Source: a virus
Length of the DNA: 34,543 nucleotides
Reading direction: 5' to 3' (one strand)
UHGV virus genome: UHGV-0068935
Of the stretch, positions 3,012 to 34,543 are shown piece after piece. Numbering within the stretch: position 1 is the stretch's first letter; every line of letters starts with the position of its first letter. The notes under the pieces were generated by a model, which did no database searches, was not told the origin of the DNA, and saw only the letters and a list, made by a program, of their open reading frames with translations. Position numbers and translations under genes: made by a program.

Positions 3012-3014
3012 TAC

Positions 3015-3269
3015 ATGGCAACAACGACAAAAGACATGGCAGAGATAGCATCAGCCTACACAATTATCATACACCGGCTCATAGCTAATAATGCCCGTAA
3101 TGCACTAAATACAGCAAAACCTTTATGGGAAACAAAAAAAGATATCATCAGCGCATTACAGGGGCTACAGAAATGCGCCGACCTCGCAGGCGATTACGCC
3201 GCATACATGGCTATTGAAGACACGATAGAGAAGATTGAATCAGGTAAATCATTAAGCGATTTTGTTTAA
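3015..3269 (+). CDS. Hypothetical early protein (84 aa)
   Basis: Tightly packed ORF in same orientation. Confidence 0.45.
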   Translation: MATTTKDMAEIASAYTIIIHRLIANNARNALNTAKPLWETKKDIISALQGLQKCADLAGDYAAYMAIEDTIEKIESGKSLSDFV

Positions 3270-3289
3270 TTGTTTTCCGGGGAAATACA

Positions 3290-3532
3290 ATGGACAAAGA
3301 ATATAAGGTTCTCATCAATAAAGCCCTTGAGCGCTTTAACTTTCGCCTGAGTATGTCAGGAGTTGCCGCAGAACATGCAGCAAGAGACTCACTGACCAGA
3401 GCAATTCGCAGCCTGTATGATGCAGCTTTTTACGCTGACGATCTGGATGCTCTCAATGAGCTGTCTGAGCTTGTTCGTGATGCAGAATGCGGAGTACATA
3501 TTGAGCCATACGCACTTGGGAATGCAGCATGA
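3290..3532 (+). CDS. Hypothetical early protein (80 aa)
   Basis: ORF in early operon. Confidence 0.45.
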   Translation: MDKEYKVLINKALERFNFRLSMSGVAAEHAARDSLTRAIRSLYDAAFYADDLDALNELSELVRDAECGVHIEPYALGNAA

Positions 3533-3654
3533 GCGTATTTCTTTCATGGGTGATTCTGATTATTTCCGTGCTTATGGCGATTGGCATTATGCGAATTATC
3601 GAAGCGCTGAAAAATATCGAATCTTTATTTACTGGCGAAGAACGCCGTAAATAA
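3529..3654 (+). CDS. Possible small hydrophobic peptide (41 aa, MSVFLSWVILIISVLMAIGIM...)
   Basis: ATGA start/stop overlap with upstream ORF; single predicted TM helix; below the 60-aa cut-off of the ORF track. Confidence 0.25.
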   Translation: MSVFLSWVILIISVLMAIGIMRIIEALKNIESLFTGEERRK

Positions 3655-3733
3655 ATAACCAACCGGACAGAAAACATTAAAACCATCCGCATCTGCGGAG
3701 GGCTTCACTCAATCCAGAAACGGAGAAACAGCT

Positions 3734-4012
3734 ATGAGCACCAATACACCTACAGAAATAAACAAACTATTTACCGACCCGGCGCATATTGAATTGACGC
3801 AAAAAACGCTAACTGAAATAACCAATGTACTGGATGAAAGAATATCAGAAATAGATAAAGACAAGCATTTTGCCACCTACATGGCCCTGCAAATGCAAAG
3901 CATGGCAATGGTGACAGCAAAACAGACCATCAGTGAACTCTATATGAAAAACCTGCGCCTCGAGCGCGAACTGGCAGAACTCCGGGCACAGTCCGGCCAG
4001 TTTTCAGCGTGA
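3734..4012 (+). CDS. Hypothetical protein (92 aa), coiled-coil-like C-terminus
   Basis: ORF in early operon. Confidence 0.45.
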   Translation: MSTNTPTEINKLFTDPAHIELTQKTLTEITNVLDERISEIDKDKHFATYMALQMQSMAMVTAKQTISELYMKNLRLERELAELRAQSGQFSA

Positions 4013-4266
4013 GGGGCAGGTCGATGAACAGCATATTTACCGCCACCATGCTGACGCGTTTCACCGATGCCGTGGGCCACGAGTTCATGGTGGAAAGTCA
4101 TTTGATCACAACGACCACGCCGTGCCCGTCAGACGCTGATTATCTCTACATCCATCTGGCTGACGGCACACAAATCACCGCGATTGCCAGTACCGTTCGC
4201 GAAGTAACGGCCATCAGAGGGGCATGGAAATCAGAAACACAAGCCCACGGAGAGCTGCGGCCATGA
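4009..4266 (+). CDS. Hypothetical protein (85 aa)
   Basis: ORF overlapping neighbours by 4 nt. Confidence 0.4.
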   Translation: MRGRSMNSIFTATMLTRFTDAVGHEFMVESHLITTTTPCPSDADYLYIHLADGTQITAIASTVREVTAIRGAWKSETQAHGELRP

Positions 4267-4475
4267 TCAGCAAGTACACCACCAACGCACGTAAACCCGG
4301 TAAAGACGCACGCCACCACATCGCCGTACTCCGCAATCTGTTACTGGAGGAAATCGACGACTTCACGGCAACGCTGAGCGGTCCGGGCGCACCAGTAACA
4401 CCAGGTGAGATCCACCGGGACCTTAAACGCCGTATTGAAAACGCCATTGATTACACCCTGAACCCGACCGAATAA
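4263..4475 (+). CDS. Hypothetical protein (about 70 aa)
   Basis: ATGA overlap with upstream ORF; alternative start at 4224. Confidence 0.35.
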   Translation: MISKYTTNARKPGKDARHHIAVLRNLLLEEIDDFTATLSGPGAPVTPGEIHRDLKRRIENAIDYTLNPTE

Positions 4476-4501
4476 CCGGAACAGTAACGGAGGTTATCGC
4501 G

Positions 4502-5056
4502 ATGAGACTTACACCTATGGGAATACCGGGCAAAGACCCGGCACATGTGAAGGCGTGGACACAGCAGGAAGATCGGTTACTCATCTCGCTTTATCAGGAA
4601 CACAACACACATCAGATGGCTGAACGAATTCAGCGAACCCGTAAAGCAGTTATGTACCGGATTCGTTTTTTACGTAATCGTGGGCTGATTGGCCGCAAGA
4701 GAAAAGCACCACTGAGTACAGAAGCCATAGCCTTTCTTATTAAAAACCGTCATGTAAAAACCGCACAGGAAATGGCTCTGGAAGTGGGATGCAGTGAGTG
4801 CACAGTGAGGTACACACTGCGTAAACGGGGTTACAACCTGAAAAAATGCGGTGAGAACCACCATTGCGCCAGATACAGCGATCATCTGGTTGAGCTGGTC
4901 ACGGAGCTACGCGACATACACAACATGACGTTCTGCATGATCGCTGAACACATCAACAGCACGATACAGATGCACATTAACGACGATGCGGCGTTTCATC
5001 TCTACCACCGCCGCACCGCAACTGACGCAGTGCTCTGTGAACTGTTACCGGGCTGA
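4502..5056 (+). CDS. Putative DNA-binding protein with two HTH-like segments (184 aa)
   Basis: Basic helix-turn-helix-like segments (RIQRTRKAVMYRIRFLRNRG and AQEMALEVGCSECTVRYTLRKRG); no firm family assignment. Confidence 0.45.
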   Translation: MRLTPMGIPGKDPAHVKAWTQQEDRLLISLYQEHNTHQMAERIQRTRKAVMYRIRFLRNRGLIGRKRKAPLSTEAIAFLIKNRHVKTAQEMALEVGCSECTVRYTLRKRGYNLKKCGENHHCARYSDHLVELVTELRDIHNMTFCMIAEHINSTIQMHINDDAAFHLYHRRTATDAVLCELLPG

Positions 5057-6083: not shown

Positions 6084-8599
6084 GCGACCATAATGCACAA
6101 CTGGCGTACCCGTGGAACGCCCCGCTACCGGTTATCGATCCTGAAACGTTCGGCAGAGCGCAGCCAACCGCATTACGCCAGGCCATTCAGAGCTACATCA
6201 ACGAGGATATTCGCACTGACGCCAGACTGGATGAAGAAACCGTCGCCTTCCTGACAACCACAGACGAAGGGAAGCGAATTAATTCGCATCTTTACCACGA
6301 CGAAGAGCGTCGGATCAGGCTGGAAAAACTGGCGCGGCACAAACACGAGAATCCGCCAACACTGGTATCTGAAGCCATGGCAGAGCTGCGCGCCCTGCCG
6401 CCGTTTCTTGCCGGTCCGCTCATCCGTGACCTGGCGCGCCTGAGCCGCAAACAGGAGAGCGCACGCCGGGAAGGGCTTAAGAATAACAGCGCATATGCGG
6501 CGGATAACTTCGTTCGTCACGGGCTGCGTGCCCGCCTGAAACGTATCGCCCGTGTGAATGAACGCTTTGCCACCCCGGCCTTTAAGGCCACCGCCGCGCG
6601 CGAACGGCTGGATGAACTGCTTATGCTGCCACAGCTGAGCCGTGACGAAATCCAGCGCCTTGCCACCCTGACCGCCACCGCGTTTTCCACCGCACTGGAG
6701 CGCGCATGTGATGAAGTCATCGAAAAGACCGGCAGGGGTGACGATGACCTGCTCACCTGGTTACTGACCTACCAGCCACTGGCACACATGGCGTTAAAAC
6801 TGGGTATCACGCCACCCTGCTGGCCGTCGCTGGAAATCAGGCCCGACCGCCGCACCGACCCCGACCCGGAACGGGTGCCGGGTGCGGTCATGCGCCTTTC
6901 CTGTGCGACATGGTGGAACAGTCAGTTAAGACACCTCCGGGACATCTGGCGTGAAGAACTGTTACGCGCCGCAGGTCTGGTGTCACGTAAGACATCGGTA
7001 TATATCAGCCATGAAGCGTTACTGGACTGGCGCGAAAAACGCCAGCGCACCCGCGATTTTCTGAAGGCCTGGGACATCGAGAACGAAGAGGGAGAACGGT
7101 TCAGCCTTGAGGATATCTACTGGGCAGGTCTCTCTAATCCGCGTAACCGCCGTAACGAGATGATGACCTGCGCCCGGGGAATGGAGCAGGTCGCCGAAGC
7201 ACGCGGCGACGTGGCGTTTTTCGTCACCGTCACAGCCCCTTCCCGTTTTCACAGCGTGAACGATGACGGCAGCCTGAACCCGAAATACTGCGGAGCAACG
7301 GTACGCGATGCCAGTGATTATCTGGTTTACCGCTTTTTCGCCGCCGTCCGCAGGGCCATCGACAAGGCCGGGCTGGGCTGGTACGGCGTGCGCACCGTGG
7401 AGCCCCACCACGACGGTACACCGCACTGGCACATGCTGGTATTCACCAGCCAGGAAAACGAAGCCCGTATCACTGAAATCATGCGCAACGCCGCCATCAG
7501 GGAGGACCGCGCAGAGCTGGGTGATGATATCTCCCCGCGTTTTAAATGCAAAAAAATCGACCCGGCAAAAGGCACACCGACAAGCTATATCGCGACCTAT
7601 ATCGGTAAGAACCTGGACGCCAGCACCTTCATGGGGAATGACCCGAAAACCGGCAAACCTTACGTCGATAAGGAATCAGGCAAAACCATGGCCGAAACCG
7701 TGGAGAACGCCATCGGCTGGGCAGGCCTTCACCGCATCCACCAGTTCCAGTTCTTCGGTATCCCTCCCCGCCAGGTATGGCGCGAACTCCGCCGTCTTGC
7801 CGGGCAAATGGCCCGTAACCCGGCTGCCCCGCAGCGTCTGGACCATGACGACATTGACGCCATACTGGCCGCCGCCGACGTGGGATGTTTTGCCACCTAT
7901 ATCACCCGCCAGGGTGGTGTGCTCATTCCCCGCAACACGTACCTGGTCCGCACCGCATACGAAACTGCCGAAGAGGCCAACGACTACGGCGAATTCCCGC
8001 AACGCATTTACGGCGTCCGCGCCCCGTCACTCGGGGAGCGCTACACCATATGCACCCACCCGGACACCTGGAAACTGGTCAGACGTAAGCCGGAAAACGA
8101 AGACCGCACGGACGAGGGTTTTGACGTTGAGTGCGGCTTTGCCGCACCTTGGACTCGTGGCAATAACTGTCCCCCTGACCAGAATCTGACCATAAACGAC
8201 CCGCCAGAAAGGCAGCCGGACGGACGCAGGGAGCAGCGACTTACCCTGCCGGAAGGTGATTTGGGTGAATGGTTAAGGTCACTGACCCCTACAGAGCGAA
8301 AACAACTCACCAGGCAGCTGAAAAACCCGCCACCTGACACGGAAACCGTGAAAAACGGCGGCATCAGTGCGCCCGCTGGCGGCGTTCGCGTGAGTGTCGC
8401 ACTGACCGCTGAGCCACACATCACCGCACAAATCACCCGTGAGCTTGATGCTCTGGGCGTGCAGCTGCATGAAAGCGCCGTCGTTTCCGTCCGTCACGGT
8501 GCCCGCGTGCGCCTGGCTGACGGACGCACCGCGTACTGGAATGACAGCACCCGCCGCATTGATATCACCCCCGCACCGAATACGGAAGCGCCACAATGA
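6071..8599 (+). CDS. A: Rolling-circle replication initiator endonuclease, P2 gpA-like (HUH superfamily)
   Basis: HUH motif in EPHHDGTPHWHMLVF and catalytic tyrosine motif SYIATYIGKNLD as in phiX174/P2 A proteins; 842 aa. Confidence 0.85.
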   Translation: MRRMSDHNAQLAYPWNAPLPVIDPETFGRAQPTALRQAIQSYINEDIRTDARLDEETVAFLTTTDEGKRINSHLYHDEERRIRLEKLARHKHENPPTLVSEAMAELRALPPFLAGPLIRDLARLSRKQESARREGLKNNSAYAADNFVRHGLRARLKRIARVNERFATPAFKATAARERLDELLMLPQLSRDEIQRLATLTATAFSTALERACDEVIEKTGRGDDDLLTWLLTYQPLAHMALKLGITPPCWPSLEIRPDRRTDPDPERVPGAVMRLSCATWWNSQLRHLRDIWREELLRAAGLVSRKTSVYISHEALLDWREKRQRTRDFLKAWDIENEEGERFSLEDIYWAGLSNPRNRRNEMMTCARGMEQVAEARGDVAFFVTVTAPSRFHSVNDDGSLNPKYCGATVRDASDYLVYRFFAAVRRAIDKAGLGWYGVRTVEPHHDGTPHWHMLVFTSQENEARITEIMRNAAIREDRAELGDDISPRFKCKKIDPAKGTPTSYIATYIGKNLDASTFMGNDPKTGKPYVDKESGKTMAETVENAIGWAGLHRIHQFQFFGIPPRQVWRELRRLAGQMARNPAAPQRLDHDDIDAILAAADVGCFATYITRQGGVLIPRNTYLVRTAYETAEEANDYGEFPQRIYGVRAPSLGERYTICTHPDTWKLVRRKPENEDRTDEGFDVECGFAAPWTRGNNCPPDQNLTINDPPERQPDGRREQRLTLPEGDLGEWLRSLTPTERKQLTRQLKNPPPDTETVKNGGISAPAGGVRVSVALTAEPHITAQITRELDALGVQLHESAVVSVRHGARVRLADGRTAYWNDSTRRIDITPAPNTEAPQ

Positions 8600-9607: not shown

Positions 9608-9871
9608 TCAGGAACGCCGCGACAGTAGTTCAAGCGCATACCGGCGATCTTCCGGGCACATGGCATCAACAAGAAACTTCACCATATTGCGACCGGAGCG
9701 GGCGCCGGGGCTGAGGGTATGGGAAAAGGTCATCGTACAGACGAAGGTATGCCCGCATTCGACATCACTGCATGCACAGTACAGATCCGCAAGTTCAGGG
9801 GTTTTCCAGTCTGTCTTCCGGATGACAGCAGGTGCGCCACAGTCCGGACACCGGGCTTTAAAAATCCGCAT
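9608..9871 (-). CDS. ogr: Ogr/Delta-family zinc-finger late-gene transcriptional activator
   Basis: C-x2-C-x22-C-x4-C spacing identical to P2 Ogr and the YCACSDVECGHTF motif matching P2 YHQCQNVNCSATF; GGGAGG RBS; start at internal Met MRIFKARCPDCG. Confidence 0.8.
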   Translation of the reverse strand: MRIFKARCPDCGAPAVIRKTDWKTPELADLYCACSDVECGHTFVCTMTFSHTLSPGARSGRNMVKFLVDAMCPEDRRYALELLSRRS

Positions 9872-15726: not shown

Positions 15727-15833
15727 ACGACTACCCGCAGGGCCGGGCGGGCGCGGGAGGAGGCATCAGTGACGGAAACTGTATGGCCGTGGAATCCCGG
15801 ACAGCCCGCCTTTTTATTCATATGAGGCACGTC

Positions 15834-16307
15834 ATGAGCGAACCGAGCTTCAGCGTCAGCGGTAAACCGCTGAAATCCACACCGCAGACGGTGACAAACG
15901 GCGAGCCGTTCTGGCCGGACCTTGATCTGGCTGAGCTTCAGGGGTCACGCACGCTTCCGGCTGATTTACCCGACGACACGGCGGCCATGGCGCTGCTTGC
16001 CGCAGTGGCCGAGGTGAACACCACGCTGGCGCAGGTTGTGGTGCACTGGAAGGCGCAGGGGCATGAACGCGCCGCAGACGTACCGGGGGCCAGGCTGGGC
16101 GATGAAACCCAGCTGGTCGCACAGTACAAAAAGGCCGTTTATGCCCGTGCCAAGGCCGATCTTATGGGCGAGTTCGCCACCATTGGTCGCCGTGAAACCT
16201 ATCCGGGGCAGGAAAGCGAGGACACACGCGCCACCTTACTGGCTGAAGCCTCGCTGGTCATGCGTAACATGCTGGGGCACAGACGCGCGGGAGTGCACAT
16301 CATATGA
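15834..16307 (+). CDS. L: Head completion protein, P2 gpL-like
   Basis: 157 aa after M; GAGG RBS before internal ATG 15834 (track start 15783). Confidence 0.65.
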   Translation: MSEPSFSVSGKPLKSTPQTVTNGEPFWPDLDLAELQGSRTLPADLPDDTAAMALLAAVAEVNTTLAQVVVHWKAQGHERAADVPGARLGDETQLVAQYKKAVYARAKADLMGEFATIGRRETYPGQESEDTRATLLAEASLVMRNMLGHRRAGVHII

Positions 16308-16777
16308 ACCAGCTGGAAAGCCTGACCGCCTTCATTACCGAAAATCTGCCGCCTGACGCCATGCAGTTCTTCATGAGCAGTCAGGAAGACGCGCAGCTTA
16401 TCCGCAGTCAGAAGGCGCTGGGTAACGACCAGATCCGCATGGGCGTGATGACGTACACCGGCGTGATTGCATGGGATAACTTCCCGTTCCGCAAATACTC
16501 ACCGGGGCTGGTTTACGCGCTGGTCATGGCCTGGCTGGAAGAGCACGCGGACCCGCTGAGGGAGGAATTCCGCCCGGAGGATGTGAACGTCGACCCGCAG
16601 TTTAACGATGAGGACTCGTGCCTTCTCGATATCACGGTGGGACTGGCTGACCCGCTGATCATCCGGGTGCAGGAAGACGGCCCCGTTCCGTACAGGGGGA
16701 AACGCTGGACACTGGTTAACCCTGAAATCTGGACGGCGGAAACCATGGATCTGTTTGTCAGCAGGAGCCGCGAATGA
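16304..16777 (+). CDS. Tail completion protein, P2 gpR-like
   Basis: LVYALVMAWLEEHADPL resembles P2 R LIVPVLAWLRENQPDIM; 157 aa versus 155 in P2; ATGA overlap with L. Confidence 0.5.
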   Translation: MNQLESLTAFITENLPPDAMQFFMSSQEDAQLIRSQKALGNDQIRMGVMTYTGVIAWDNFPFRKYSPGLVYALVMAWLEEHADPLREEFRPEDVNVDPQFNDEDSCLLDITVGLADPLIIRVQEDGPVPYRGKRWTLVNPEIWTAETMDLFVSRSRE

Positions 16778-17484
16778 TAAGCGGCCAGCTGAACCCGCAG
16801 CAGCTGGCAGAAGCGCAGGCGATGCTTCAGTCGCTGGATCTGCCACCAAAAAAACGCCGTCGCCTGTTATGGCGTATTGCCCGGCACGGCATTATCGCCG
16901 CTGCCAGACGCCATCAGCGCGATCAGGCCGCACCGGACGGTACAGCATGGGCACCCAGGAAACGCGGTAAGGGGAAAATGTTCAGAAAGCTGCCGCGTCT
17001 TCTGGCGGTCCGTGAGATGCCCGGACAGGATGCCGTAAAGGTTTATTTCCGTAACGGCAATCACACCAGTGGCAGGAGCCGCATCAGTGCCGGTGCCGTG
17101 GGCTGGGTTCACCACAACGGCGCAGAAATCCGGGTCAGTGCTGACAGCTTCAGCGGTCAGGACCAGAGCGGACAGACCGCCACCCGCCGACAGGCAAAAC
17201 GACTGCGGGTGCTGGGCTTTAAGGTACGTCAGAAGGGGCGCTGGCGGAAAGCATCCATGAAATACCTGTTAACGCTTTCGCGGGCGCAGGCCGGGTTGCT
17301 GATCACCGTTATGGAAGATCAGATTATCGCCGGACCACGTCAGCAGAAGGCCCGGACATGGACCATTACCCTTCCGTCGCGCGTCTTTCTGGGGGTAACA
17401 AACGAAGAATTTTCACACATCCTGGCACGCCAGATGAACGCAATGGGCTACGGCCTGGACGTTGACGCACAGGATATCAGATAA
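16774..17484 (+). CDS. Putative virion morphogenesis / tail completion protein (gpS-like)
   Basis: Position after the R-like gene; basic 236-aa protein; ATGA overlap. Confidence 0.4.
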   Translation: MISGQLNPQQLAEAQAMLQSLDLPPKKRRRLLWRIARHGIIAAARRHQRDQAAPDGTAWAPRKRGKGKMFRKLPRLLAVREMPGQDAVKVYFRNGNHTSGRSRISAGAVGWVHHNGAEIRVSADSFSGQDQSGQTATRRQAKRLRVLGFKVRQKGRWRKASMKYLLTLSRAQAGLLITVMEDQIIAGPRQQKARTWTITLPSRVFLGVTNEEFSHILARQMNAMGYGLDVDAQDIR

Positions 17485-17495
17485 GGAGTCACACC

Positions 17496-18641
17496 GTGAG
17501 CTGGCCGAATGTAACCGTAAGCCATCAGAACCGTTTCAACGGTGCCACCCGTGAAGTGGAGCGCACGCTGCTTTTTGTGGGCTATGGCAAAAAGAACACA
17601 GGTAACACCCTTTCCGTCTCCCCTGAGACCGACCTGGACGACGTGCTGGGACCGGATGAAAGCCTGCTTAAATCCACGCTTACCGCCGCAATCGCCAACG
17701 GTGGCCAGAACTGGTTTGCCTATGTTCACGTTCTGTCTGAACCCAAACCCCCGGCACCGGAGGGCGGCGACGCTAACGCCGCATGGGTGGACGCGGTGAA
17801 AAAAGCGCAGACCATTGCTTCTGCCGAGGGCGTGGTGATTGCCATTGACATCACGGCCAAAGATGCCGTTAACCGCGCCACCGAAACCCGCGCCCTGCTT
17901 CAGTCCGCTTATGGCCGTTTTGTCTGGTTCATGCTGTGCGTGGCCGGACCGGGCAAGGATGAGGCATGGGCGGCATACGTCACCCGCATCAGTGCCATAC
18001 AGGACGGCGTGGCAGCACCTGGCGTGATGGTGGTTCCCCGCTTATGGGGAAATGAGCCCGGCGTACTGGCGGGCCGTCTCTGTAATCCTTCCGTCACCGT
18101 TGCGGACAGTCCGGCACGTGTGGCAACCGGTGCCCTGGTGGCGATGGGTAACGATGAGATCCCGCAGGACGGCAAGAAACAGCCCCTTGAGCTGGCCACG
18201 CTGCGCTCGCTGGAAGGCAAACGCTTCAGCGTGCCCATGTGGTATCACGATTTCGACGGGCTCTACTGGTCAGACGGACGCACCCTTGATGTGGAGGGGG
18301 GAGATTACCAGGTCATCGAAAACGTGCGCGTGGTGGATAAAGTCTCCCGCCGTGTACGTCTGCGCGCCATTGCCCGCCTTGCGGATCGCGCACTCAACAG
18401 CACACCGGGCAGCATTGCCGCCAGCCAGACATATTTCAGCCGCACGCTGCGTGAAATGGCGCTCGCCACGGAGATTAACGGCGTACCGTTCCCCGGCGAG
18501 GTTAAACCGCCACAGGACGGGGATATCACCATCGTCTGGACCAGCAGTACACACGTGCAGATTTACATTGTGGTACGCCCCTACGAGAGCGCAAAAGCCA
18601 TTGGCGTAAGTATTGAACTCGACACAGCACTGGAGATCTGA
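17496..18641 (+). CDS. Putative tail sheath protein (non-P2 type)
   Basis: 381 aa, GTG start with AAGGAG RBS, directly upstream of tube-like gene; no similarity to P2 FI noted. Confidence 0.4.
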   Translation: MSWPNVTVSHQNRFNGATREVERTLLFVGYGKKNTGNTLSVSPETDLDDVLGPDESLLKSTLTAAIANGGQNWFAYVHVLSEPKPPAPEGGDANAAWVDAVKKAQTIASAEGVVIAIDITAKDAVNRATETRALLQSAYGRFVWFMLCVAGPGKDEAWAAYVTRISAIQDGVAAPGVMVVPRLWGNEPGVLAGRLCNPSVTVADSPARVATGALVAMGNDEIPQDGKKQPLELATLRSLEGKRFSVPMWYHDFDGLYWSDGRTLDVEGGDYQVIENVRVVDKVSRRVRLRAIARLADRALNSTPGSIAASQTYFSRTLREMALATEINGVPFPGEVKPPQDGDITIVWTSSTHVQIYIVVRPYESAKAIGVSIELDTALEI

Positions 18642-18642
18642 C

Positions 18643-19104
18643 ATGGCCGGAAATGAACGTATCAGCGGCGGCGCGTTTGATATCAACTACGACGGGATCA
18701 TGATCCACGTGGAAAGCGCCACCGTCACCATCACCGACAACAGCGCCGTGGCACAGACGCGCGGCGTGCCGAACGGCTACACCCGTGGTTCCGTTTCTGC
18801 CGATGTGGAGGTGGAAGTCGACGCGCAGAACTTTAAAAAGTTTGGTGCCGTGGCCCGCTCTGCGGGGTCGTGGCGTGCCATTCCTGAAAAGGATTTTCTC
18901 TTTTATGCCAACAACGGCAGCGAGGAGGAAAAAATCGAGGTATTCGGCTGCGTCCCCATGTTGTCGGACGTGGTGAACATCAGCGCAGGTGAAGCCGGAA
19001 AGACCACGAAAAAAATCAAGTTCATGGTCACAAGCCCGGACTTTATCAGCATTGACGGCGTGCCCTACCTGTCAGCCCGTGACACCCGCGATCTGAAGGG
19101 GTGA
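18643..19104 (+). CDS. Putative tail tube protein
   Basis: About 153 aa, beta-rich, follows the sheath-like gene; GGAG RBS. Confidence 0.4.
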   Translation: MAGNERISGGAFDINYDGIMIHVESATVTITDNSAVAQTRGVPNGYTRGSVSADVEVEVDAQNFKKFGAVARSAGSWRAIPEKDFLFYANNGSEEEKIEVFGCVPMLSDVVNISAGEAGKTTKKIKFMVTSPDFISIDGVPYLSARDTRDLKG

Positions 19105-19108
19105 TGCC

Positions 19109-19414
19109 ATGCCGGACGGTCAGACTTCACTCCTGGCAAAACTGATTATCATCGGTGCTGCCATCGGGCTGGGGCGTCTCATGGTGAGCCGCGATCGCAT
19201 CACAGCCCGTCTGCTTATCGGGCGAATGATTATGGGCTCTGCCGTGGCACCGGTTGCCGCCATTCCGCTGTTTAAATTTCCGGACATGCCGGAGCTGGTT
19301 GTGGTCGGTCTGGCGTGCGCGCTGGGCATTATGGGCAGCGCCTTTATTGAAGAATGCTTTTGCCGTCTGGCAGACCGCTACCTGAAGCAGAAGGAACGCA
19401 GAAATGACCCATAA
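19109..19414 (+). CDS. Putative holin / small membrane protein (101 aa, multiple TM segments)
   Basis: Hydrophobic segments LLAKLIIIGAAIGLG, IMGSAVAPVAAIPLF and LVVVGLACALGIMGSAFI; located upstream of the endolysin. Confidence 0.4.
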   Translation: MPDGQTSLLAKLIIIGAAIGLGRLMVSRDRITARLLIGRMIMGSAVAPVAAIPLFKFPDMPELVVVGLACALGIMGSAFIEECFCRLADRYLKQKERRNDP

Positions 19415-20156
19415 GCCTTACATTTCGCCTTTCCTGAGCCTGTATCACGCGCAGGCGCATGACGTTCTGCGAATGCTGCCGGAAAACAGTGTGGACGCGC
19501 TCATCACAGACCCGCCATACAGTTCAGGTGCCACACACAAGGCGGGGCGGACATGCCAGGGCAGCCACGCCAAATACATCAACGATGAAGATCTTCACCG
19601 CTTTGAAGGCTTCGAAGGCGAGAACATGGACGCCCGTTCATGGGAATACTGGACGCATCTGTGGATGACACAGGCATGGCGCACGGTACGACCCGGTGGT
19701 TACGCCCTGGTCTTCACCGACTGGCGGCAGTTGCCCGCGCTGACGGACGCATTCCAGGCCGCCGGTTTTACCTGGCGGGGGATCGTGGCATGGAACAAGG
19801 GACGGGCCTCAAGAACACCGCATACCGGTTATTTTCGTCACCAGTGCGAATATGTGGTCTGGGGCAGTAAAGGCGCGCTGGGCAAATCCCCTTCCGGGCC
19901 GTTCGACGGCTGCATCACGCACCACACACGCCCACAGGAGAAACAGCACCCGACAGGTAAACCGGAATCGTTGATGAATGAGCTTGTGCGCGTGTGTGAA
20001 CCCGGAGGGCTGATCCTCGATCCGTTTATGGGGTCCGGCACCACGGGCGTGGCCGCCCTTCGCCGGGGCTGCCGTTTTACGGGTATTGAACTGAACGCCC
20101 ACTATTTCAGCGTGGCACAGGCGCGCCTTACGGGGACGGAACAGAGGAGTGACTGA
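19404..20156 (+). CDS. Orphan DNA methyltransferase (N6-adenine or N4-cytosine, beta class)
   Basis: DPPY catalytic motif near the N-terminus (ITDPPYSS) and FMGSGTTGVAA AdoMet-binding motif near the C-terminus. Confidence 0.8.
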   Translation: MTHKPYISPFLSLYHAQAHDVLRMLPENSVDALITDPPYSSGATHKAGRTCQGSHAKYINDEDLHRFEGFEGENMDARSWEYWTHLWMTQAWRTVRPGGYALVFTDWRQLPALTDAFQAAGFTWRGIVAWNKGRASRTPHTGYFRHQCEYVVWGSKGALGKSPSGPFDGCITHHTRPQEKQHPTGKPESLMNELVRVCEPGGLILDPFMGSGTTGVAALRRGCRFTGIELNAHYFSVAQARLTGTEQRSD

Positions 20157-20494
20157 TGAAACTGAGCGAAAAACAACAACTGTTTGCCGTCATGATTGCC
20201 GATCTCATCCACTGGGCACAGGAGCACGGCTATCGCCTGACCTTCGGCGAGGCATACCGCACGCCGGAGCAGGCCGCACTGAATGCGAAAAGCGGAAAAG
20301 GCATTCGCAACAGCCTTCACACGCTGCGCCTCGCGGTGGACTTCAACCTGTTCATTAACGGCAAATACCAGGCCGACACCGACGCCTACAGGCCGCTGGG
20401 GGAATACTGGGAATCCATCGGCGGCACATGGGGCGGACGCTTCAGCCGGGCAGACGGCAATCATTTCAGCCTTGAGCACAACGGGATGAAATGA
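20156..20494 (+). CDS. Endolysin, M15-family zinc peptidase
   Basis: Zn-ligand pattern SLHTLRLAVDFN ... DGNHFSLEH typical of M15 peptidases; ATGA overlap; followed by spanins. Confidence 0.7.
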   Translation: MKLSEKQQLFAVMIADLIHWAQEHGYRLTFGEAYRTPEQAALNAKSGKGIRNSLHTLRLAVDFNLFINGKYQADTDAYRPLGEYWESIGGTWGGRFSRADGNHFSLEHNGMK

Positions 20495-20877
20495 TGAAAC
20501 AGCTGGCGGGCTGCCTGGTGATCCTCTTTGCCGCCATGTGGGCAGGCTGGCTGGCCCATGACTGGCATGACGCCAGGGTGGCACTTGCCGAACAGGAAGC
20601 CATGGAAGCCACGCGACGGGCGGTGACAGAAGCCGGGCAGCAGTCCGCCCGCATACTGGAAAAACGGCTGGAGGCGTTAAAGGGCAATGAAATTCACACT
20701 GAACGCGTTATTCACACGGAAACCGTCCGCCCGGTATTCCGCAATGTGTGCGCTACTGATGATTACGTCCGGCTGTTCAACGCCCGTGCTGAAGCCGCTG
20801 AACGTACCCTGGCAGGAAAACCAGCTGACGGAATGCCCGAAGACACTGCCGAGACTGGCAGGCCCGACGGGCGCTGA
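20491..20877 (+). CDS. i-spanin (Rz-like)
   Basis: N-terminal TM helix (LAGCLVILFAAMWAGWLA) followed by charged coiled-coil region; directly after endolysin. Confidence 0.55.
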   Translation: MMKQLAGCLVILFAAMWAGWLAHDWHDARVALAEQEAMEATRRAVTEAGQQSARILEKRLEALKGNEIHTERVIHTETVRPVFRNVCATDDYVRLFNARAEAAERTLAGKPADGMPEDTAETGRPDGR

Positions 20878-20980
20878 TTTTGATGCGGCACTGCGAACCC
20901 TCACGAGCCGCTACACCGAATGCGCCGCCAGGCATAACAGCCTGGTGGAAACCATACGAAACACGGAGAAACTGCAATGA
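20744..20980 (+). CDS. o-spanin (Rz1-like lipoprotein), overlapping the end of the i-spanin gene in another frame
   Basis: Lipobox-like LMITSGC after internal Met; extends past the i-spanin stop. Confidence 0.45.
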   Translation: MCALLMITSGCSTPVLKPLNVPWQENQLTECPKTLPRLAGPTGADFDAALRTLTSRYTECAARHNSLVETIRNTEKLQ

Positions 20981-21252
20981 CCACGAAGAACACCGGCACC
21001 ATCATCCTGTCCGTTGCGGGCGTAACCCTGAGCTTTGAACCGAACAAAACGGCATTTAACAACCTCATCAACGAAATCACGATGACCAACAAGGTGGCGC
21101 CGATGAGCACCTATCTTAACCGCATCGTGACGCCTGCCAGCCGCGACGCACTGGCTGACCTGATTGCGCGTTATCCGGGCTGTGAGATGCAGATCGTCGA
21201 GAAGATTAACGAGGTTTACTCCCCGAAACTGGAGATTGAGTTAAAAAACTGA
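20977..21252 (+). CDS. Tail assembly chaperone (gpE-like, 91 aa)
   Basis: 91 aa, same size as P2 E, immediately upstream of tape measure; ends in slippery heptamer A_AAA_AAC. Confidence 0.55.
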   Translation: MTTKNTGTIILSVAGVTLSFEPNKTAFNNLINEITMTNKVAPMSTYLNRIVTPASRDALADLIARYPGCEMQIVEKINEVYSPKLEIELKN

Positions 21253-21440
21253 CCGCGCGGGTCGAAAGCATCCGCCGCAATCCCCTTGAGCAGTATCTGG
21301 CATTGCGGCGTCACTACCTCCCCGGAGAGCCGGACGACGAAGAGAGCATCGCCCGTGCCATCTGGCTGGATGAATATTTTGCCCGTACCCGCGCCAACAA
21401 GACCGCTGAAGGTATAGCGATCGCATTTAACGGAAGGTGA
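20977..21440 (+). CDS. Predicted -1 frameshift fusion product of the tail chaperone (E+E'-like, about 152 aa)
   Basis: Slippery A_AAA_AAC at 21243..21249; the -1 frame is open for 62 codons and stops 1 nt before the tape-measure ATG. Confidence 0.5.
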
Positions 21441-21441
21441 C

Positions 21442-23628
21442 ATGGCCAGCCAGCTGGATTTCATTATCAATCTGACAGACCAGCTTACCCGCCCGCTGCG
21501 GCAGGTTCAGGAATCCGTGACGGGATTCGCCGAACGCTCGCAGGGCGCGTTCGCGCGTATCGGTGTGGGTGTGGCCGGACTGTGGGGCGTGGCCGAAGGT
21601 ATCCGCGCCGCGATGGATCCGGCGTGGGAGATGCAGAAGGCGCTGGGCGAGCTTGAGGCCAAAGGCGTCGGGGCGCAGGCGCTGACCGCCCTCACCACGC
21701 AGGCCATGAAACTGGGGACCGCATTCGGTCAGTCTTCCACGGAGATCATCCGTTCCGCATGGCATATTCGCGGCGCACTGGACGGACTGAGCGACGGGGA
21801 TTTACCCCGTGTGACGGCAGCAACCAGCACCCTGGCCGTGGCTGCCCGCGTCAGCAGCGAAGAGGCGAGCGGCTACCTTGCCGCCATGGGTGCCCGTTTC
21901 CGCAGTGAGTTTTCTGCCATGGGTGCCGTGGGGTTTGCTGAAGATCTGGCAGGTAAAACCGCGTGGATGGTTCAGCAGTTCGGCGTGGAAATGAGCACCA
22001 TGCAGGAGCTTATTGAGGGCACCAAAAACGCGGGCGCGGATTTTGGCGTCAGCATGGCAGAGCAGTTTGCCATACTGGGCACCCTGTCACGGACCATGGG
22101 CACCGAGGCATCGGGCATCTATGAGGAATTCCTGCGCAGTGCCCCCGCTGCCGCACAAAAAATGGGGATGAGTTTTGTTGATGCCACCGGGAAGATTTTA
22201 CCCATGGGTGACATCCTCGACCGTCTGCAGGCGAGGTTCGGCAGGAACATCGAGGGTAACGTGGCGGCACAACAGGCGCTGGATGACGCCTTCGGCAGTG
22301 GCGCGGACGTGATTAAAAAACTCTGGGGACAGCAGGAAATGCTTAACCGGAGCATATCAGCGCTGGGGCGTAATGACGGCATGAAGCGTGCCACGGAAAT
22401 GGCGGAAGCCATGACTGACCCGTGGGACCGCCTTGTGGCCTCCTTCTACAACATCCGGGCCGCCATCGGTAACGCCCTCTACCCCATTCTCGCACCACTG
22501 GCTGGCCGTTTTGCCGATATCGGCGCGACGTTCGTGCGCTGGCTGAACATGTTCCCGAACATCGCCCGCTGGCTGGGTTACATCACGCTGACCATGCTGG
22601 CGCTGGGCGCAGCCGGTGCGGTCACGAACATCGTGCTGGGTGTGTTCAGCTTCATCATGGAAGGCCATAAGGCCATCATAAAGGGCGCCAGGGCAGCCTG
22701 GAGTCTGTACACGCTTGCACTCACAAAAGTACGCAGTGCCATCATTGCCACCAGTCTTGCCGCGCGTCTGGCGGGCGTGTCGTTTCTGACCATGAGCGCC
22801 CCGGTCCTCCTGGTTGCCGCCGCCATCGCTGCTCTGGTGGTGGTGGCCATTAAGTTCTGGCAGCCCATCAAAGCCTTTATTCGCGGCTTTATTGATGGTT
22901 TTACCAGCGCACTGGACGCCATGAGCCCGGTGACTGCCGCGTTCGGTGACATTGCCCGGGCGCTGGCCCCGGTATGGCAGGGCATAAAAACACTGTTCAG
23001 TGCCTTCTCCGATCTGTTTGCACCGGTACAGCTGACCACGGGACAGATGAACAGCGTCACCCGTGCCGGGGAAACATGCGGTCGCGTGGTGGCCGCAGCG
23101 GTAAGCATGATATCCCCCGCGCTGGAGGTGGTTATCAGCGTGATCAGAACCCTGATCGACATCTTCGCCATCGTCATCAGAGGGTGGCAGGACGTGGTGG
23201 CTGCATTTGACCCGACCGCCCCGGTCGAATCCTTCCGGAAAATGGCGGGGATCATCGGTAACGTCTTCGGGGACTTATGGAACGTCATTAAAAACTCGTT
23301 TAACCGGACGTGGAACTGGCTTGCGGAAAAGCTGAACAAAATCCCCGGTATCAGTATCGACATGAAGCCCACGGAGCAGGTGAACACCATGACGCGGGGC
23401 GCAACAGGCAGCACCGTACCTCCGCAGATTGCAGAAACCGCCGTCCCGGCACTGGCAGGCAACCGCATCAGCGCAGAGCTGCCACCCGGAGGCATACGCA
23501 ACCAGATACGCACGGACACCTCAACCCGTATCGACAACAGCCGGACGTTCGGCAATCTGACAATCAACACGCAGAACCCGATGACGCCGGGGCAACTGGA
23601 TGAATGGACGGAGCTTTACGCGGGATGA
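21442..23628 (+). CDS. Tail tape measure protein (728 aa)
   Basis: Large Ala/Gly-rich protein with hydrophobic central segments, downstream of chaperone frameshift pair. Confidence 0.8.
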   Translation: MASQLDFIINLTDQLTRPLRQVQESVTGFAERSQGAFARIGVGVAGLWGVAEGIRAAMDPAWEMQKALGELEAKGVGAQALTALTTQAMKLGTAFGQSSTEIIRSAWHIRGALDGLSDGDLPRVTAATSTLAVAARVSSEEASGYLAAMGARFRSEFSAMGAVGFAEDLAGKTAWMVQQFGVEMSTMQELIEGTKNAGADFGVSMAEQFAILGTLSRTMGTEASGIYEEFLRSAPAAAQKMGMSFVDATGKILPMGDILDRLQARFGRNIEGNVAAQQALDDAFGSGADVIKKLWGQQEMLNRSISALGRNDGMKRATEMAEAMTDPWDRLVASFYNIRAAIGNALYPILAPLAGRFADIGATFVRWLNMFPNIARWLGYITLTMLALGAAGAVTNIVLGVFSFIMEGHKAIIKGARAAWSLYTLALTKVRSAIIATSLAARLAGVSFLTMSAPVLLVAAAIAALVVVAIKFWQPIKAFIRGFIDGFTSALDAMSPVTAAFGDIARALAPVWQGIKTLFSAFSDLFAPVQLTTGQMNSVTRAGETCGRVVAAAVSMISPALEVVISVIRTLIDIFAIVIRGWQDVVAAFDPTAPVESFRKMAGIIGNVFGDLWNVIKNSFNRTWNWLAEKLNKIPGISIDMKPTEQVNTMTRGATGSTVPPQIAETAVPALAGNRISAELPPGGIRNQIRTDTSTRIDNSRTFGNLTINTQNPMTPGQLDEWTELYAG

Positions 23629-31284: not shown

Positions 31285-31298
31285 TTATTCATTTTAAC

Positions 31299-31326
31299 AG
31301 GCCGCGCAATGTGGCCTTTTTTATTC
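31299..31326 (+). terminator. Putative intrinsic terminator after the last tail gene
   Basis: Hairpin AGGCCGCGCAATGTGGCCT followed by TTTTTTATT. Confidence 0.4.
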
Positions 31327-31399
31327 CCCCGATAATAAAAAATATTCATCACAGGACATCACCCGCCACGAAAAAACCGCCCGCAGCAGAAAAAAAGAT

Positions 31400-31995
31400 G
31401 GACGAAACGCCCCACGTAATCCCCACGTAAAACGTCGCGTAACGCCACGTAACGAAGAGATAACCCCGCCAGCCCGATTCGATCCCCTGACATCGGAAAA
31501 CGATTTCTGCGCCCCAAAATCGCCGCAAATGGCCGGAAATTTTCGGGGGCGACGTAACGCGTAAAGTGACGTAATCGGCGCTACCCCGCACACGCCTCCG
31601 GTATTTGTGTACGATAAATTTTGCAAATCGAAAGGGGTGCAAAACACCCCGCCAGGGCGCGCCATTACTGAGGTTTTCCCTTCTGAATGGTTTTGCACTT
31701 TGTGCAAGGTTTTGCAAAAGTGTGCAAAAACTCCGGCTTTCTGAGGATCCCGAAAAATTTTAATGCACTGAATAACAAGAGATTTTTAAAATTACGTCAC
31801 GATCGAAGATCTGAAAAAGGATCCGGCGACGAAAACGAAAAAATCAGGAAAGCCAGAACTGGCGCGGCCTGGCGGGGAGTGGCAGCAAAAATCACTTTTG
31901 CACACTTTTGCACAACTGCTCCGAAAAAGGATGGCGAAGGGGAAGGAAAAACAGCCACGTCATCCGTTGCACGTAACGGACGTAAAAGGTAAATT
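31400..31995. repeat. Repeat-rich non-coding region: phased CGTAA repeats, TTTGCAC/GTGCAAA repeats, GATC cluster
   Basis: At least 9 CGTAA copies in phased groups (10-12 bp spacing at 31414..31453), tandem CTTTTGCACA x2 at 31895..31914, palindrome GGGGTGCAAAACACCCC at 31634..31650, five GATC sites in 31481..31824; no convincing ORF. Confidence 0.45.
31967..31995 (+). promoter_or_regulatory. Putative promoter of hok copy 1 (TTGCAC-N17-TAAATT)
   Basis: Sigma70-like hexamers just upstream of the start of the duplicated hok unit. Confidence 0.3.
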
Positions 31996-32147
31996 ACGCG
32001 CGGGTGCCTTTCGGCTGACGGCTGGAAGGATTACCTGAAGGCCGGATGTGGAAAGGCCCCGAGTCAAACATTTGTTTAACCCGAGGCCCTGACCATCTAC
32101 CTCGCAAGTGGAAGGTTAGCGCCTCCCTGTAAAAGGAGTCAAGCGCT

Positions 32148-32288
32148 ATGCCGCAAAAAACGATCATAGTGAGCATTTTATGCATAACTATTTTGATGAT
32201 TGTCTGGATGATACACAAGTCACCGTGTGAGTTCAGGCTTAACATCATGTGGTCACAATTTGCGGCGTTCTTGCAGTGTAAACAGTAA
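32148..32288 (+). CDS. hok: Hok/Gef-family type I toxin (46 aa, HokA-like)
   Basis: MPQKTIIVSILCITILMIVWMIHKSPCEFRLNIMWSQFAAFLQCKQ matches my memory of HokA (MPQKYRLLSLIVICFTLLFFTWMIRDSLCELHIKQESYELAAFLACKLKE): shared MPQK, TM helix, SxCE and AAFLxCK; AAAAGGAG RBS. Confidence 0.8.
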   Translation: MPQKTIIVSILCITILMIVWMIHKSPCEFRLNIMWSQFAAFLQCKQ

Positions 32289-32378
32289 GAAACCGCAGCG
32301 GGGGTGAAAGCCCCCGCTATCCGGTTGCCGGGTTCGGTCGATATGGCACCCTTTCTCCGTTGGATTACAGACGTATTT

Positions 32379-32401
32379 GCCCGCAATATGCGGGCTTTTT
32401 T
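32379..32401 (+). terminator. Intrinsic terminator of hok copy 1
   Basis: GCCCGCAATATGCGGGC hairpin followed by TTTTTT. Confidence 0.6.
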
Positions 32402-32403
32402 GT

Positions 32404-32607
32404 TCAGTTGTATTTATTGTGGTCGTTACTGGCAGTGGTATTAACTGATTTTGCATGAATAGCACAAATTTTTTCCACGATAACACCACACGCTTCAAGA
32501 TCTTCCGGGCGTGAAACCTTTATTTTTGTAACCGTCTCAGGATTATCAGCCGTTCCACTTTGCACAACCTCAATTTCAATTTTTTTTCTTGAAAGAATCA
32601 TTTTCAT
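32404..32607 (-). CDS. Possible small ORF (67 aa) between the hok copies
   Basis: AT-rich ORF from the track, weak RBS; no recognised motif. Confidence 0.2.
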   Translation of the reverse strand: MKMILSRKKIEIEVVQSGTADNPETVTKIKVSRPEDLEACGVIVEKICAIHAKSVNTTASNDHNKYN

Positions 32608-32686
32608 CGCCCCGACACAGGACAGAGTAAGCCTGTGCGAAAGAATATCACCAGTGCGATAGCGTTGTCTGCTTCAACGCCAGGCA

Positions 32687-32715
32687 TTGCGCACACAAAG
32701 GGAAATCAGTACATT
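32687..32715 (+). promoter_or_regulatory. Putative promoter of hok copy 2 (TTGCGC-N17-TACATT)
   Basis: Same architecture and position as the copy 1 promoter. Confidence 0.3.
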
Positions 32716-32870
32716 ACACGCGGGTGCCTTTCGGCTGATGGCTGGAAGGATTACCTGAAGGCCGGATGTGGAAAGGCCCCGAGTCAACTTAAATGTTAAC
32801 CCGAGGCCCTAACACTTCCTACCGTGACAAGTGGAAGGTTAGCGCCTCCCTGTAAAAGGAGTCAAGCGCT

Positions 32871-33011
32871 ATGCCGCAAAAAACGATCATCGTGAGCATT
32901 TTATGCTTAACCATGTTGTTGACCGTCTGGATGATACACCGTTCTCCGTGTGAGTTCAGACTTAACATCATGTGGTCAGAATTTGCGGCGTTCTTGCAGT
33001 GTAAACCGTAA
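32871..33011 (+). CDS. hok: Hok/Gef-family type I toxin (46 aa), second copy
   Basis: MPQKTIIVSILCLTMLLTVWMIHRSPCEFRLNIMWSEFAAFLQCKP; same RBS and frame as copy 1. Confidence 0.8.
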   Translation: MPQKTIIVSILCLTMLLTVWMIHRSPCEFRLNIMWSEFAAFLQCKP

Positions 33012-33101
33012 GAAACCGCAGCGGGGGTGAAAGCCCCCGCTATCCGGTTGCCGGGTTCGGTCGATATGGCACCCTTTCTCCGTTGAATTACATAGACATT
33101 T

Positions 33102-33134
33102 GCCCGCGATATGCGGGCTATATTTTTATTTTTT
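33102..33134 (+). terminator. Intrinsic terminator of hok copy 2, abutting the stop of the convergent 398-aa gene
   Basis: GCCCGCGATATGCGGGC hairpin followed by T-rich tract. Confidence 0.55.
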
Positions 33135-34322
33135 GAATAGGTTAATAAATTCAGGTTTTTTCTTATCTCCTGCTTCCCTTCGTTTAACCCAACAACACCC
33201 TGACTGAAGTAAACAGACAAATTCATCCTGCTTCAGCTCTAAGGTGTCTTTAAGTTTTAATTGTTTTTTCGCAGCATCAGGAACAAAAACATCAACAATA
33301 ATCTTTCCGGGGTCATACAGTTGAGTTTCAATCAGCACAGGTAATTTATGGACAGGTCTGGGTTCCATACGAGAAAAAGAAAACTCACCATCCATCACAC
33401 CATCAAAAGTACTTACAGAATCGTAACCAGAAAAGCACTCATATTTCACCTGAAGAACAACAGCATCATCAAGCTTTAAAAAATCGCAATAAGAATCATA
33501 CGCCAGGCGATCACTATAAAAAACATCACCGCGATTAAACTGAAAGGAATCCCCTTGCGTCCAAATTTCATAATTAAAAAACTCTGTTTTTACTGGGGTA
33601 AGTTTTATATCCAAAGAATCCTTGTAACACTCTTTTACAGCAAAGCGCCAACCAGCTGCGTAACCATCAACAAATACCGCAATCAACGCATTACTACGGC
33701 GAAACTCCCTTACAGTACGGATAGAAAGCGAGAACTCATCTATCATACTCTTGTAAGTGTTAACATCCTTCTCAAGCGATTTACTGATATCATTCTCAAC
33801 CACGCAGTCTTGCTCAAGAGGAATTTCACCAGTATCAATAAAATTGATAAATTGTTCTTCTGTCAGAATAATTACGCCATAATCGCTGGCTTTCTGAACT
33901 TTCCGCCACCCTTTGTTCTTTCCTACACAAAGGAAAAACAAACTTTTTCCAACATCAGACTTAACATCAATACCATTTTCTTTTGCAAGAGCACTTAAGC
34001 GAGATTTATCAGACTGGTCAAATCCGGTAAAACAAATTGAAATTGAATTCTTTTTGGGTGAAGATTTTCGGGGGGGGGGGGCAATATACTGACTGAAATC
34101 AGTTTCAGACGCAACCTTATTCAACTCCTGGTCGCTAGAAAACATCTGAATAACACGGTCTTTCAAAAAGGTACGAAATGCGCGACGAGTTAAAGAGAAT
34201 CCTTGTAAATAATCCCCTTTTTCAGCCACCTTTATCACGCATTGAGCCGACAACTCCCCTCTACCGTTAACATACAGAAAAAACGCCTCTTTATTTTCGT
34301 TTATCATTTCCCTATCAAACAT
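33126..34322 (-). CDS. Cargo protein with WYL-like N-terminal motif, Pro-rich linker, BRCT-like domain and uncharacterised C-terminal domain (398 aa)
   Basis: Residues about 93-165 (ICFTGFDQSDKSRLSALAKENGIDVKSDVGKSLFFLCVGKNKGWRKVQKASDYGVIILTEEQFINFI) follow the BRCT pattern of the NAD-ligase C-terminus; residues about 37-58 (DYLQGFSLTRRAFRTFLKDRVI) resemble the WYL signature; markedly AT-rich; GGGGG SD-like element upstream. Confidence 0.6.
   Translation of the reverse strand: MFDREMINENKEAFFLYVNGRGELSAQCVIKVAEKGDYLQGFSLTRRAFRTFLKDRVIQMFSSDQELNKVASETDFSQYIAPPPRKSSPKKNSISICFTGFDQSDKSRLSALAKENGIDVKSDVGKSLFFLCVGKNKGWRKVQKASDYGVIILTEEQFINFIDTGEIPLEQDCVVENDISKSLEKDVNTYKSMIDEFSLSIRTVREFRRSNALIAVFVDGYAAGWRFAVKECYKDSLDIKLTPVKTEFFNYEIWTQGDSFQFNRGDVFYSDRLAYDSYCDFLKLDDAVVLQVKYECFSGYDSVSTFDGVMDGEFSFSRMEPRPVHKLPVLIETQLYDPGKIIVDVFVPDAAKKQLKLKDTLELKQDEFVCLLQSGCCWVKRREAGDKKKPEFINLFKK
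34070..34081. repeat. Homopolymeric G tract (about 12 nt; C12 on coding strand) inside the 398-aa gene
   Basis: Run of G in the sequence; the ORF track reads it in frame as Ala-Pro-Pro-Pro-Arg. My hand count of the printed text gave 11 G, but the track translation requires 12, so exact length is uncertain by 1. Confidence 0.75.
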
Positions 34323-34357
34323 AGGACCCCCGTATCAGGCTTAACATTTTGTATATG

Positions 34358-34385
34358 CTTAGCCCGCGAATCATTACGGGCTAAG
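34358..34385. promoter_or_regulatory. Perfect 9-bp inverted repeat (CTTAGCCCG-N10-CGGGCTAAG) upstream of the 398-aa gene
   Basis: Located 36-63 bp upstream of the start codon on the minus strand; operator-like geometry. Confidence 0.3.
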
Positions 34386-34400
34386 ATGTATCGCTATGGC

Positions 34401-34414
34401 AAAATGTGGACAAC
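34401..34414. repeat. Putative Int arm-type site AAAATGTGGACAAC, right copy
   Basis: Near-identical to 476..489; lies 46 bp inside the proposed attR core. Confidence 0.3.
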
Positions 34415-34459
34415 GAGAAAAATAATCCTTTATTTTTCATTGCATTACATCAATTTTCG

Positions 34460-34476
34460 CGCCACCCGAAGGTGGC
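34460..34476. repeat. attR: Putative attR core (CGCCACCCGAAGGTGGC), right copy of 17-bp direct repeat
   Basis: Identical to 362..378; here forms a terminator-like hairpin (CGCCACC-CGAA-GGTGGCG) followed by a T-rich tract. Confidence 0.45.
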
Positions 34477-34543
34477 GTGCTTTTATTATTACTTATCCCT
34501 GTCTAACCAGTCGCCGCTTTCAATTAGCTTTAATCCATCGACG

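Follow-up and report, generated by a model that had tools for sequence, protein, structure and literature searches.

The question raised by the locus described here is whether lysis genes found in the middle of a tail gene cluster mark a recently rearranged genome, or are simply where phages of this kind keep them. The locus comprises positions 19109–20980 of the virus genome UHGV-0068935, and by the window we mean the whole stretch of that DNA which was analysed, 34,543 nt in length. Genes for a holin, a DNA methyltransferase (MTase), an M15 endolysin and an overlapping Rz/Rz1 spanin pair lie there between the genes for the tail tube and the tail assembly chaperone. A first-pass annotation, which took phage P2 as its point of comparison, had read this lysis cassette as inserted at that place and, together with a sheath and tube unlike those of P2 and a relocated ogr gene, had seen in it the sign of a mosaic genome. 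We consider it highly probable that the window is a complete HP1-like (Peduoviridae) temperate prophage of Escherichia coli, and that its lysis module stands where the whole HP1-like clade has it, between tube and chaperone.

A gene order shared among HP1-like phages

The P2 order is Q P / O N M L X Y K lysA lysB lysC R S / V W J I H G / FI FII E E' T U D ogr, with Y-K-lysA-lysB-lysC placed between L/X (head completion) and R/S (tail completion) and with FI-FII-E-T contiguous. The order in the window does differ from this, as had been noted, and the sheath, tube and chaperone of the window have no sequence relationship to FI, FII and E of P2. By tblastn, similarity to P2 takes in the integrase, A, the portal, the large terminase subunit (TerL), the scaffold, the capsid, the small terminase subunit (TerS) and L, with weak matches for S and the tape measure, a match of about 40% for the holin and matches to parts of the tail fibre and fibre-assembly proteins; none was found for the sheath, tube, chaperone or baseplate. 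Comparisons of the sheath and tube with P2 FI and FII by BLASTP and hhalign gave no relationship either, which bears out the earlier description of these two proteins as non-P2.

When HP1 is taken as the reference the order is a familiar one. Annotated records of HP1, K139, phiO18P, ESSI-2, phi3, YenM324 and SW3, which represent seven genera, have sheath, tube, lysis genes, chaperone and tape measure in common in that order, and the same order is found in an E. coli prophage of strain Bongo. The late operon of HP1 (Hpunavirus) reads orf23-orf24-hol-lys-orf25-orf26-orf27, and the position of hol and lys between ORF24 (the tube) and ORF25 has been known since the HP1 genome paper (PMC7312051). 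The 'HP1-like viruses' have also been described as having their capsid genes in the P2 order and tail genes that are generally unlike those of P2 (PMC2771037). Both parts are present in the window. Its P2-type head and packaging module has the portal and TerL genes divergent from those for scaffold, capsid, TerS and head completion (PHROG matches; tblastn to P2, 29–41%), and its sheath, tube and baseplate match the HP1-type families PF10758, PF10772, PF10761 and PF25759. A P2-type head, an HP1-type sheath, tube and baseplate, and lysis genes between the tube and the chaperone and tape measure are the combination by which we recognise HP1-like Peduoviridae, and the window has all of it.

The closest comparison is with SW3 (Irrigatiovirus), which is collinear and homologous with the window from capsid to baseplate in every gene except the MTase, has its cassette in the same tube–chaperone slot and carries ogr beside the portal gene. 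Amino acid identities to SW3-type phages are 85% for the tube, 84% for the M15 protein, 73% for the chaperone, 69% for the holin, 61% for Rz1 and 60% for Rz; SW3 differs in having no MTase between holin and endolysin, so that its holin stop overlaps the M15 start directly. HP1 shares the slot and matches in its baseplate families, with identities of 48% for the sheath (orf23), 52% for the tube, 36% for the chaperone and 30% for the tape measure (orf27, over 724 amino acids). It differs in the lysis proteins themselves, which are a pinholin and a signal-anchor-release (SAR) muramidase (PMC7312051); in our tblastn searches these had no sequence similarity to the holin or M15 protein of the window, and the HP1 cassette contains no MTase. 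The Aeromonas phage phiO18P (Bielevirus) has tube, zinc finger, hol, met, lys, Rz, chaperone and tape measure, with the same holin–MTase–endolysin order as the window, but it has a DksA-type zinc-finger gene in addition, placed after the tube, and its endolysin is of another family. Within the clade the slot is conserved and its content is not, as is usual for the lysis modules of phages.

A wider view was obtained from IMG/VR loci with this tube type, of which the best 80 out of at least 579 were taken and the proteins of a panel located in them by tblastn; the 75 with a recognisable chaperone form the denominator of the counts that follow. The chaperone starts at least 1 kb past the tube almost throughout (73 of 75 loci; median 1400 nt), and recognisable holin, lysin or Rz genes lie in the gap between the two in 62 of the 75.

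Several points weigh against this reading or limit its reach, beginning with the restriction of the survey to its best 80 loci. Eleven loci, most of them Vibrio-like, have in this gap a zinc-finger gene along with small membrane proteins and others of unknown function, which leaves 62 of the 75 loci, and not 73, with verified lysis genes; one of these 11 (L075) has a verified endolysin. The sole exceptions among the 75 are L085 (5992–7014) and L086, in which the chaperone (phrog_1214) and tape measure come immediately after an HP1-type sheath and tube and the lysis slot is missing. Tube and chaperone being contiguous there, the slot position is not universal, and these two loci may represent the ancestral contiguous state. 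The call of a sheath at 17496–18641 comes from family names and position rather than from structure. The lipobox of Rz1 is non-canonical at position -3 (T); deviations of this kind from the strict lipobox consensus have been noted (PMC6139136). Finally, late co-transcription, translational coupling, and the activity and target of the MTase are all things that we infer.

It could be argued that the cassette was moved recently into a P2-type tail operon to give a novel mosaic. The gene order is unlike that of P2, and the cassette shares ancestry with that of P2, given the identity of the holin to P2 Y (39% by BLASTP) and of Rz1 to LysC (about 30%, with the lipidated cysteine aligned); overlapped spanins and, probably, expression from a late operon are further likenesses, whereas the K-type endolysin and LysA of P2 are a difference. 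L085 and L086 also make an ancestral contiguity of tube and chaperone conceivable. Such a move is nonetheless very unlikely and we regard it as largely refuted already, because the position is common to the seven genera and to the 73 surveyed loci with a gap of this size, has long been on record for HP1, is flanked by tail genes that are all of HP1 type and none of P2 type, and lies in a stretch whose guanine-plus-cytosine content is uniform through the cassette. The claim of an insertion at this place finds no support in the comparison with the seven named phages, the 62 loci with lysis genes and the HP1 literature. That of a mosaic genome is supported in part: a P2-like head is indeed joined to an HP1-type tail, but this is an old, clade-wide trait and not evidence of a fresh or notable mosaic.

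Other occupants of the slot were seen during the survey. A gene for a DksA/TraR-type C4 zinc-finger protein lies between tube and holin in K139, phiO18P, phi3 and many relatives (L003, 5477–5686; L005, 3957–4166; L007, 3944–4153; and 35 of the 75 IMG/VR loci), and is absent from the tube–holin gap in the window, SW3 and HP1 lineages. The slot of the Vibrio-like loci L038, L042, L050, L074 and L083 (about 6450–7900) contains a DksA-type zinc-finger gene together with members of phrog_1501, phrog_21044, phrog_7885, phrog_1544 and phrog_3108, several of them with transmembrane segments; by their position, the proteins of this slot are candidates for unannotated lysis proteins.

The cassette genes and the tail genes around them

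All five cassette genes that had been called were recovered on the plus strand by Pfam and PHROGs matches and by motifs, with the tube gene (18643–19104) upstream and the frameshifting chaperone gene (20977–21252) downstream, as described in the first-pass annotation. The first of the five, at 19109–19414, encodes a putative gpY-type holin (PF04550, 71 bits against a cut-off of 25; phrog_175) homologous to P2 gpY, in which a hydropathy scan gave hydrophobic stretches at residues 5–28 and 35–84 followed by a charged C-terminal KQKERRND tail. Next come the MTase gene at 19404–20156 (PF01555, 97.8 bits; phrog_67) and, at 20156–20494, the gene for a predicted M15 (LAS-type) zinc peptidase endolysin (PF13539, 40.8 bits against a cut-off of 25; phrog_1768 and phrog_465). 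The latter protein has the zinc ligands H55-x6-D62 and His103/His108 and no transmembrane, signal or SAR segment, and a sequence search of the PDB with it gave a chance match only.

The last two genes are predicted to encode a two-component spanin pair of the overlapped type. The Rz-like i-spanin (20491–20877; phrog_1152, E 5.5e-31) has an N-terminal transmembrane segment at residues 1–24. The gene for the Rz1/LysC-like o-spanin lipoprotein (20687–20980; phrog_2425 and phrog_456, with a weak match to PF23793 LysC that falls below threshold) is in the +1 frame, starts within Rz and ends past it, and its product has a lipoprotein signal, ITSGC, with Cys30. At all gene junctions the start and stop codons overlap or lie at most 4 nt apart: the MTase start overlaps the holin stop by 11 nt, the MTase stop overlaps the endolysin start by 1 nt, and the chaperone start overlaps the Rz1 stop (ATGA). 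Antisense open reading frames (ORFs) across the cassette had no protein-family match among the PHROGs.

The cassette belongs to a single tightly packed string of genes on the plus strand, from 15.8 to 23.6 kb. Upstream are genes for a head–tail adaptor (15783–16307; phrog_71), a gpR-like tail terminator (16304–16777; PF06891), a gpS-like tail completion protein (16774–17484; PF05069), the HP1-type tail sheath (DUF2586) of 381 amino acids (17496–18641; PF10758, 432 bits; phrog_907 'tail sheath') and the HP1-type tail tube of the Orf24 family (18643–19104; PF10772 'Bacteriophage HP1 Orf24', 173.8 bits). Downstream is the tail assembly chaperone (20977–21252; Phage_TAC_10, PF10963, 106 bits), an analogue of gpE. 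A slippery heptamer, A_AAA_AAC, lies near its 3' end at 21243–21249 and leads into a -1 frame extension of 63 codons, the analogue of E', the two together spanning 21243–21440. The stop of this extension at 21440 is 1 nt before the start codon of the tape measure gene, and for this stretch the annotation of E. coli strain Bongo has a DUF6890 protein. A heptamer so placed and a -1 ORF reaching the tape measure are what a frameshift of the gpE/E' (G/GT) type would be expected to have. The tape measure itself is encoded at 21442–23628 (phrog_28 and phrog_19166).

If the sheath and tube had been miscalled, and were in fact head or lysis accessory proteins, the gene order would be conventional after all. 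The labels leave some room for this: the Pfam label of the sheath is still DUF2586, RefSeq has 'phage protein' for both, and the sheath and tube alignments gave chance matches only against the PDB, in sequence and in profile searches. For the tube, homologues were therefore sought as material for a structural model; 28 were aligned, and an AlphaFold model was obtained with a predicted local distance difference test score (pLDDT) of 79 and a predicted template modelling score (pTM) of 0.70. A fold search with this model matched Hcp and tail-tube folds almost exclusively, which confirms the tube fold of the 18643–19104 product at the level of a predicted structure and answers the doubt that the earlier annotation had itself raised about the tube. 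PHROGs labels of tail sheath and tail protein agree with it, as do the gpR-like and gpS-like tail completion genes just upstream and the chaperone and tape measure downstream, and we judge a miscall to be extremely improbable. The result for the tube is enough by itself to place the cassette.

How the module is expressed can be outlined from its layout and its families. A scan of the plus strand from 12.5 to 24 kb found promoter-like and terminator-like sites at chance level, with no excess of either, and P2-style Ogr sites (TGT-N12-ACA) gave 7 matches against 7.2 expected, which is uninformative. We picture one long late operon, running from the scaffold to the baseplate genes and including the lysis module, that would probably be activated by Ogr, with the chaperone being made by G/GT-type -1 frameshifting. 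Going by its family, the gpY-like holin would build up in the inner membrane and then open holes, through which the cytoplasmic M15 zinc peptidase would exit to cut the peptide links of peptidoglycan, and the Rz/Rz1 pair would then disrupt the outer membrane.

The methyltransferase at the holin–endolysin junction

The sole local variable is the MTase, which looks like a local insertion at the holin/endolysin junction. Its predicted product has the motif order of a beta-class N6_N4 amino MTase, with DPPY at residue 36 before FMGSG at residue 208. The solved structures nearest to it are those of CcrM and of enzymes of the DpnA type, and both N6-adenine (m6A) and N4-cytosine (m4C) enzymes are among the PDB matches; a DPPY motif favours m6A. 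No restriction endonuclease lies beside the gene, whose neighbours are the holin and the M15 endolysin, and the MTase is therefore an orphan. We propose that it is a cargo gene, inserted exactly at this junction. The overlaps of its start and stop codons with the neighbouring genes make translational coupling likely, and if it is so coupled the MTase would be made late, during the replication and packaging of progeny DNA. Most likely it would methylate the phage DNA, probably at adenine N6, before packaging, and this would give protection from restriction in the next host.

The nearest phage homologue, at 73% identity, is found in the P2-like E. coli phage Chuche (L009), where it lies elsewhere in the genome, beside a Com-like gene and int. 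There (3796–4738) the MTase gene is preceded by an overlapping gene for a zinc-finger protein like Com of phage Mu, and in the window it is the holin stop that the MTase start overlaps instead; the arrangement in Chuche suggests translational control of the Com type. An att-proximal cargo region with such a regulator would fit an MTase that is not anti-restriction cargo at all, being rather what is left of a restriction–modification or other defence module, or else a gene active in the lysogen that regulates host or prophage genes epigenetically. The best PADLOC matches, which are Type II MTase models, and the closest solved relative CcrM, which is a regulatory MTase, would suit that explanation too. 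We nevertheless think it unlikely, as the gene has neither a restriction endonuclease nor another defence gene for a neighbour, lies within the presumed late operon with codon overlaps at both ends, and is preceded by no promoter-like site. A late-made MTase that protects progeny DNA is the reading we prefer.

Gain and loss at this junction can be followed in relatives. The DNA of L012 is about 97% identical to that of the window, with tube and holin 100% identical, and has 9 bp in place of window positions 19456–20155 (700 bp). Codons 1–17 of the MTase, including the conserved LY..Q strand, are kept in L012, which is therefore a deletion derivative. A different MTase occupies the same holin/endolysin junction in phiO18P and three IMG/VR relatives (L045, L081 and L089), and about 20 close relatives are without it. 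The phiO18P enzyme has 358 amino acids and matches that of the window only around the DPPY and FxGSG motifs, by which the phiO18P type appears to be a separate acquisition. Another adjacency of MTase and lysis genes was met in L093, an unrelated viral contig of 36 kb: at 2860–4801 a 60%-identical MTase is encoded just ahead of an endolysin whose N-terminus is hydrophobic (phrog_7), and after the endolysin comes an Rz-like gene that has a lipoprotein ORF embedded in it. When GTDB species-representative genomes were scanned with the MTase, homologues of at most 56% identity were found, in unrelated bacteria, and no further case of the holin–MTase–M15 order.

These comparisons lead us to propose, tentatively and at somewhat less than even odds, that orphan MTases have repeatedly used the junction between holin and endolysin in HP1-like phages as a landing site. 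At least two unrelated subtypes would have been gained there, in the E. coli and the Aeromonas phiO18P lineages, and at least one lost, in L012.

MTases also occur elsewhere in related phages. The early region of SW3 (L166, 3392–9238) has three of them, a Dam, a Dcm-type enzyme and another 'DNA methylase', none of which is in the lysis cassette, and there was no MTase among the early ORFs of the window that were scanned. The 230-amino-acid early 'DNA methylase' of SW3 was considered as a relative of the window MTase and rejected as unrelated.

The prophage, its hosts and what the locus means

The remaining genes of the window are those of a temperate phage of this kind. They include an integrase, a repressor, Cox and an A-type replication nuclease, the portal and TerL genes on the minus strand, and the scaffold, capsid and TerS genes; to the right of the tape measure are HP1-type baseplate genes (DUF2590, baseplate J and HP1 ORF34) followed by tail fibre and fibre-assembly genes. 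An Ogr/Delta-type zinc-finger late activator is encoded on the minus strand at 9608–9871 (PF04606, 56.8 bits), just downstream of the portal gene. Its product has 56% identity to that of the SW3 gene in the same position and, across the zinc finger, 32% to P2 Ogr. The first-pass annotation was right in that the gene is not next to att, but its placement by the portal is shared with SW3.

Among 5426 complete E. coli genomes, 12 have prophages that match the cassette region at 98–99.7% identity. The copy in strain Bongo (L004), annotated by the Prokaryotic Genome Annotation Pipeline, lies between dmsA and serS, and that in the window adjoins ytfP; in three E. coli genomes (H62, H68 and H72) two places each match the cassette query. 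A megablast search of deposited phage genomes with 17496–21500 gave no nucleotide match, and phage relatives were therefore found by protein search only. By protein, the relatives of the tube are all HP1-like Peduoviridae, the nearest being the Salmonella phages SW3, SW5 and SI7 (Irrigatiovirus) at 85% and the next, at about 46–56%, HP1, HP2, K139, Kappa, phiO18P, F108, ESSI-2 and phi3.

The right end of the window, 31285–34543, may be a defence or cargo hotspot. Two Hok/Gef toxin genes and several ORFs without a family match are found there, with host ytfP at the window edge, together with a gene on the minus strand at 33126–34322 for a BRCT-domain protein of 398 amino acids (PF00533 and phrog_36782), which has a weak PADLOC match to PDC-S48 (E 3e-7). 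The whole of this stretch is carried by 2 of the 5426 E. coli genomes.

The apparent anomaly of a lysis cassette among tail genes arises from the use of P2 as the only reference for the Peduoviridae. The arrangement is the long-known HP1-type layout, and as such the finding is an ordinary one, with the minor value of documenting an uncharacterised lineage of HP1-like prophages in E. coli. The MTase is a second minor point, in that a lysis cassette can accommodate an orphan MTase whose ends overlap the genes on either side, apparently independently in two lineages, and would be a tidy example of late-timed anti-restriction cargo. If the proposed landing site is real, the placement of the MTase would couple methylation of the progeny DNA to the late programme and the timing of lysis, and the slot would be a small cargo hotspot, in spirit like the defence hotspots of P2.

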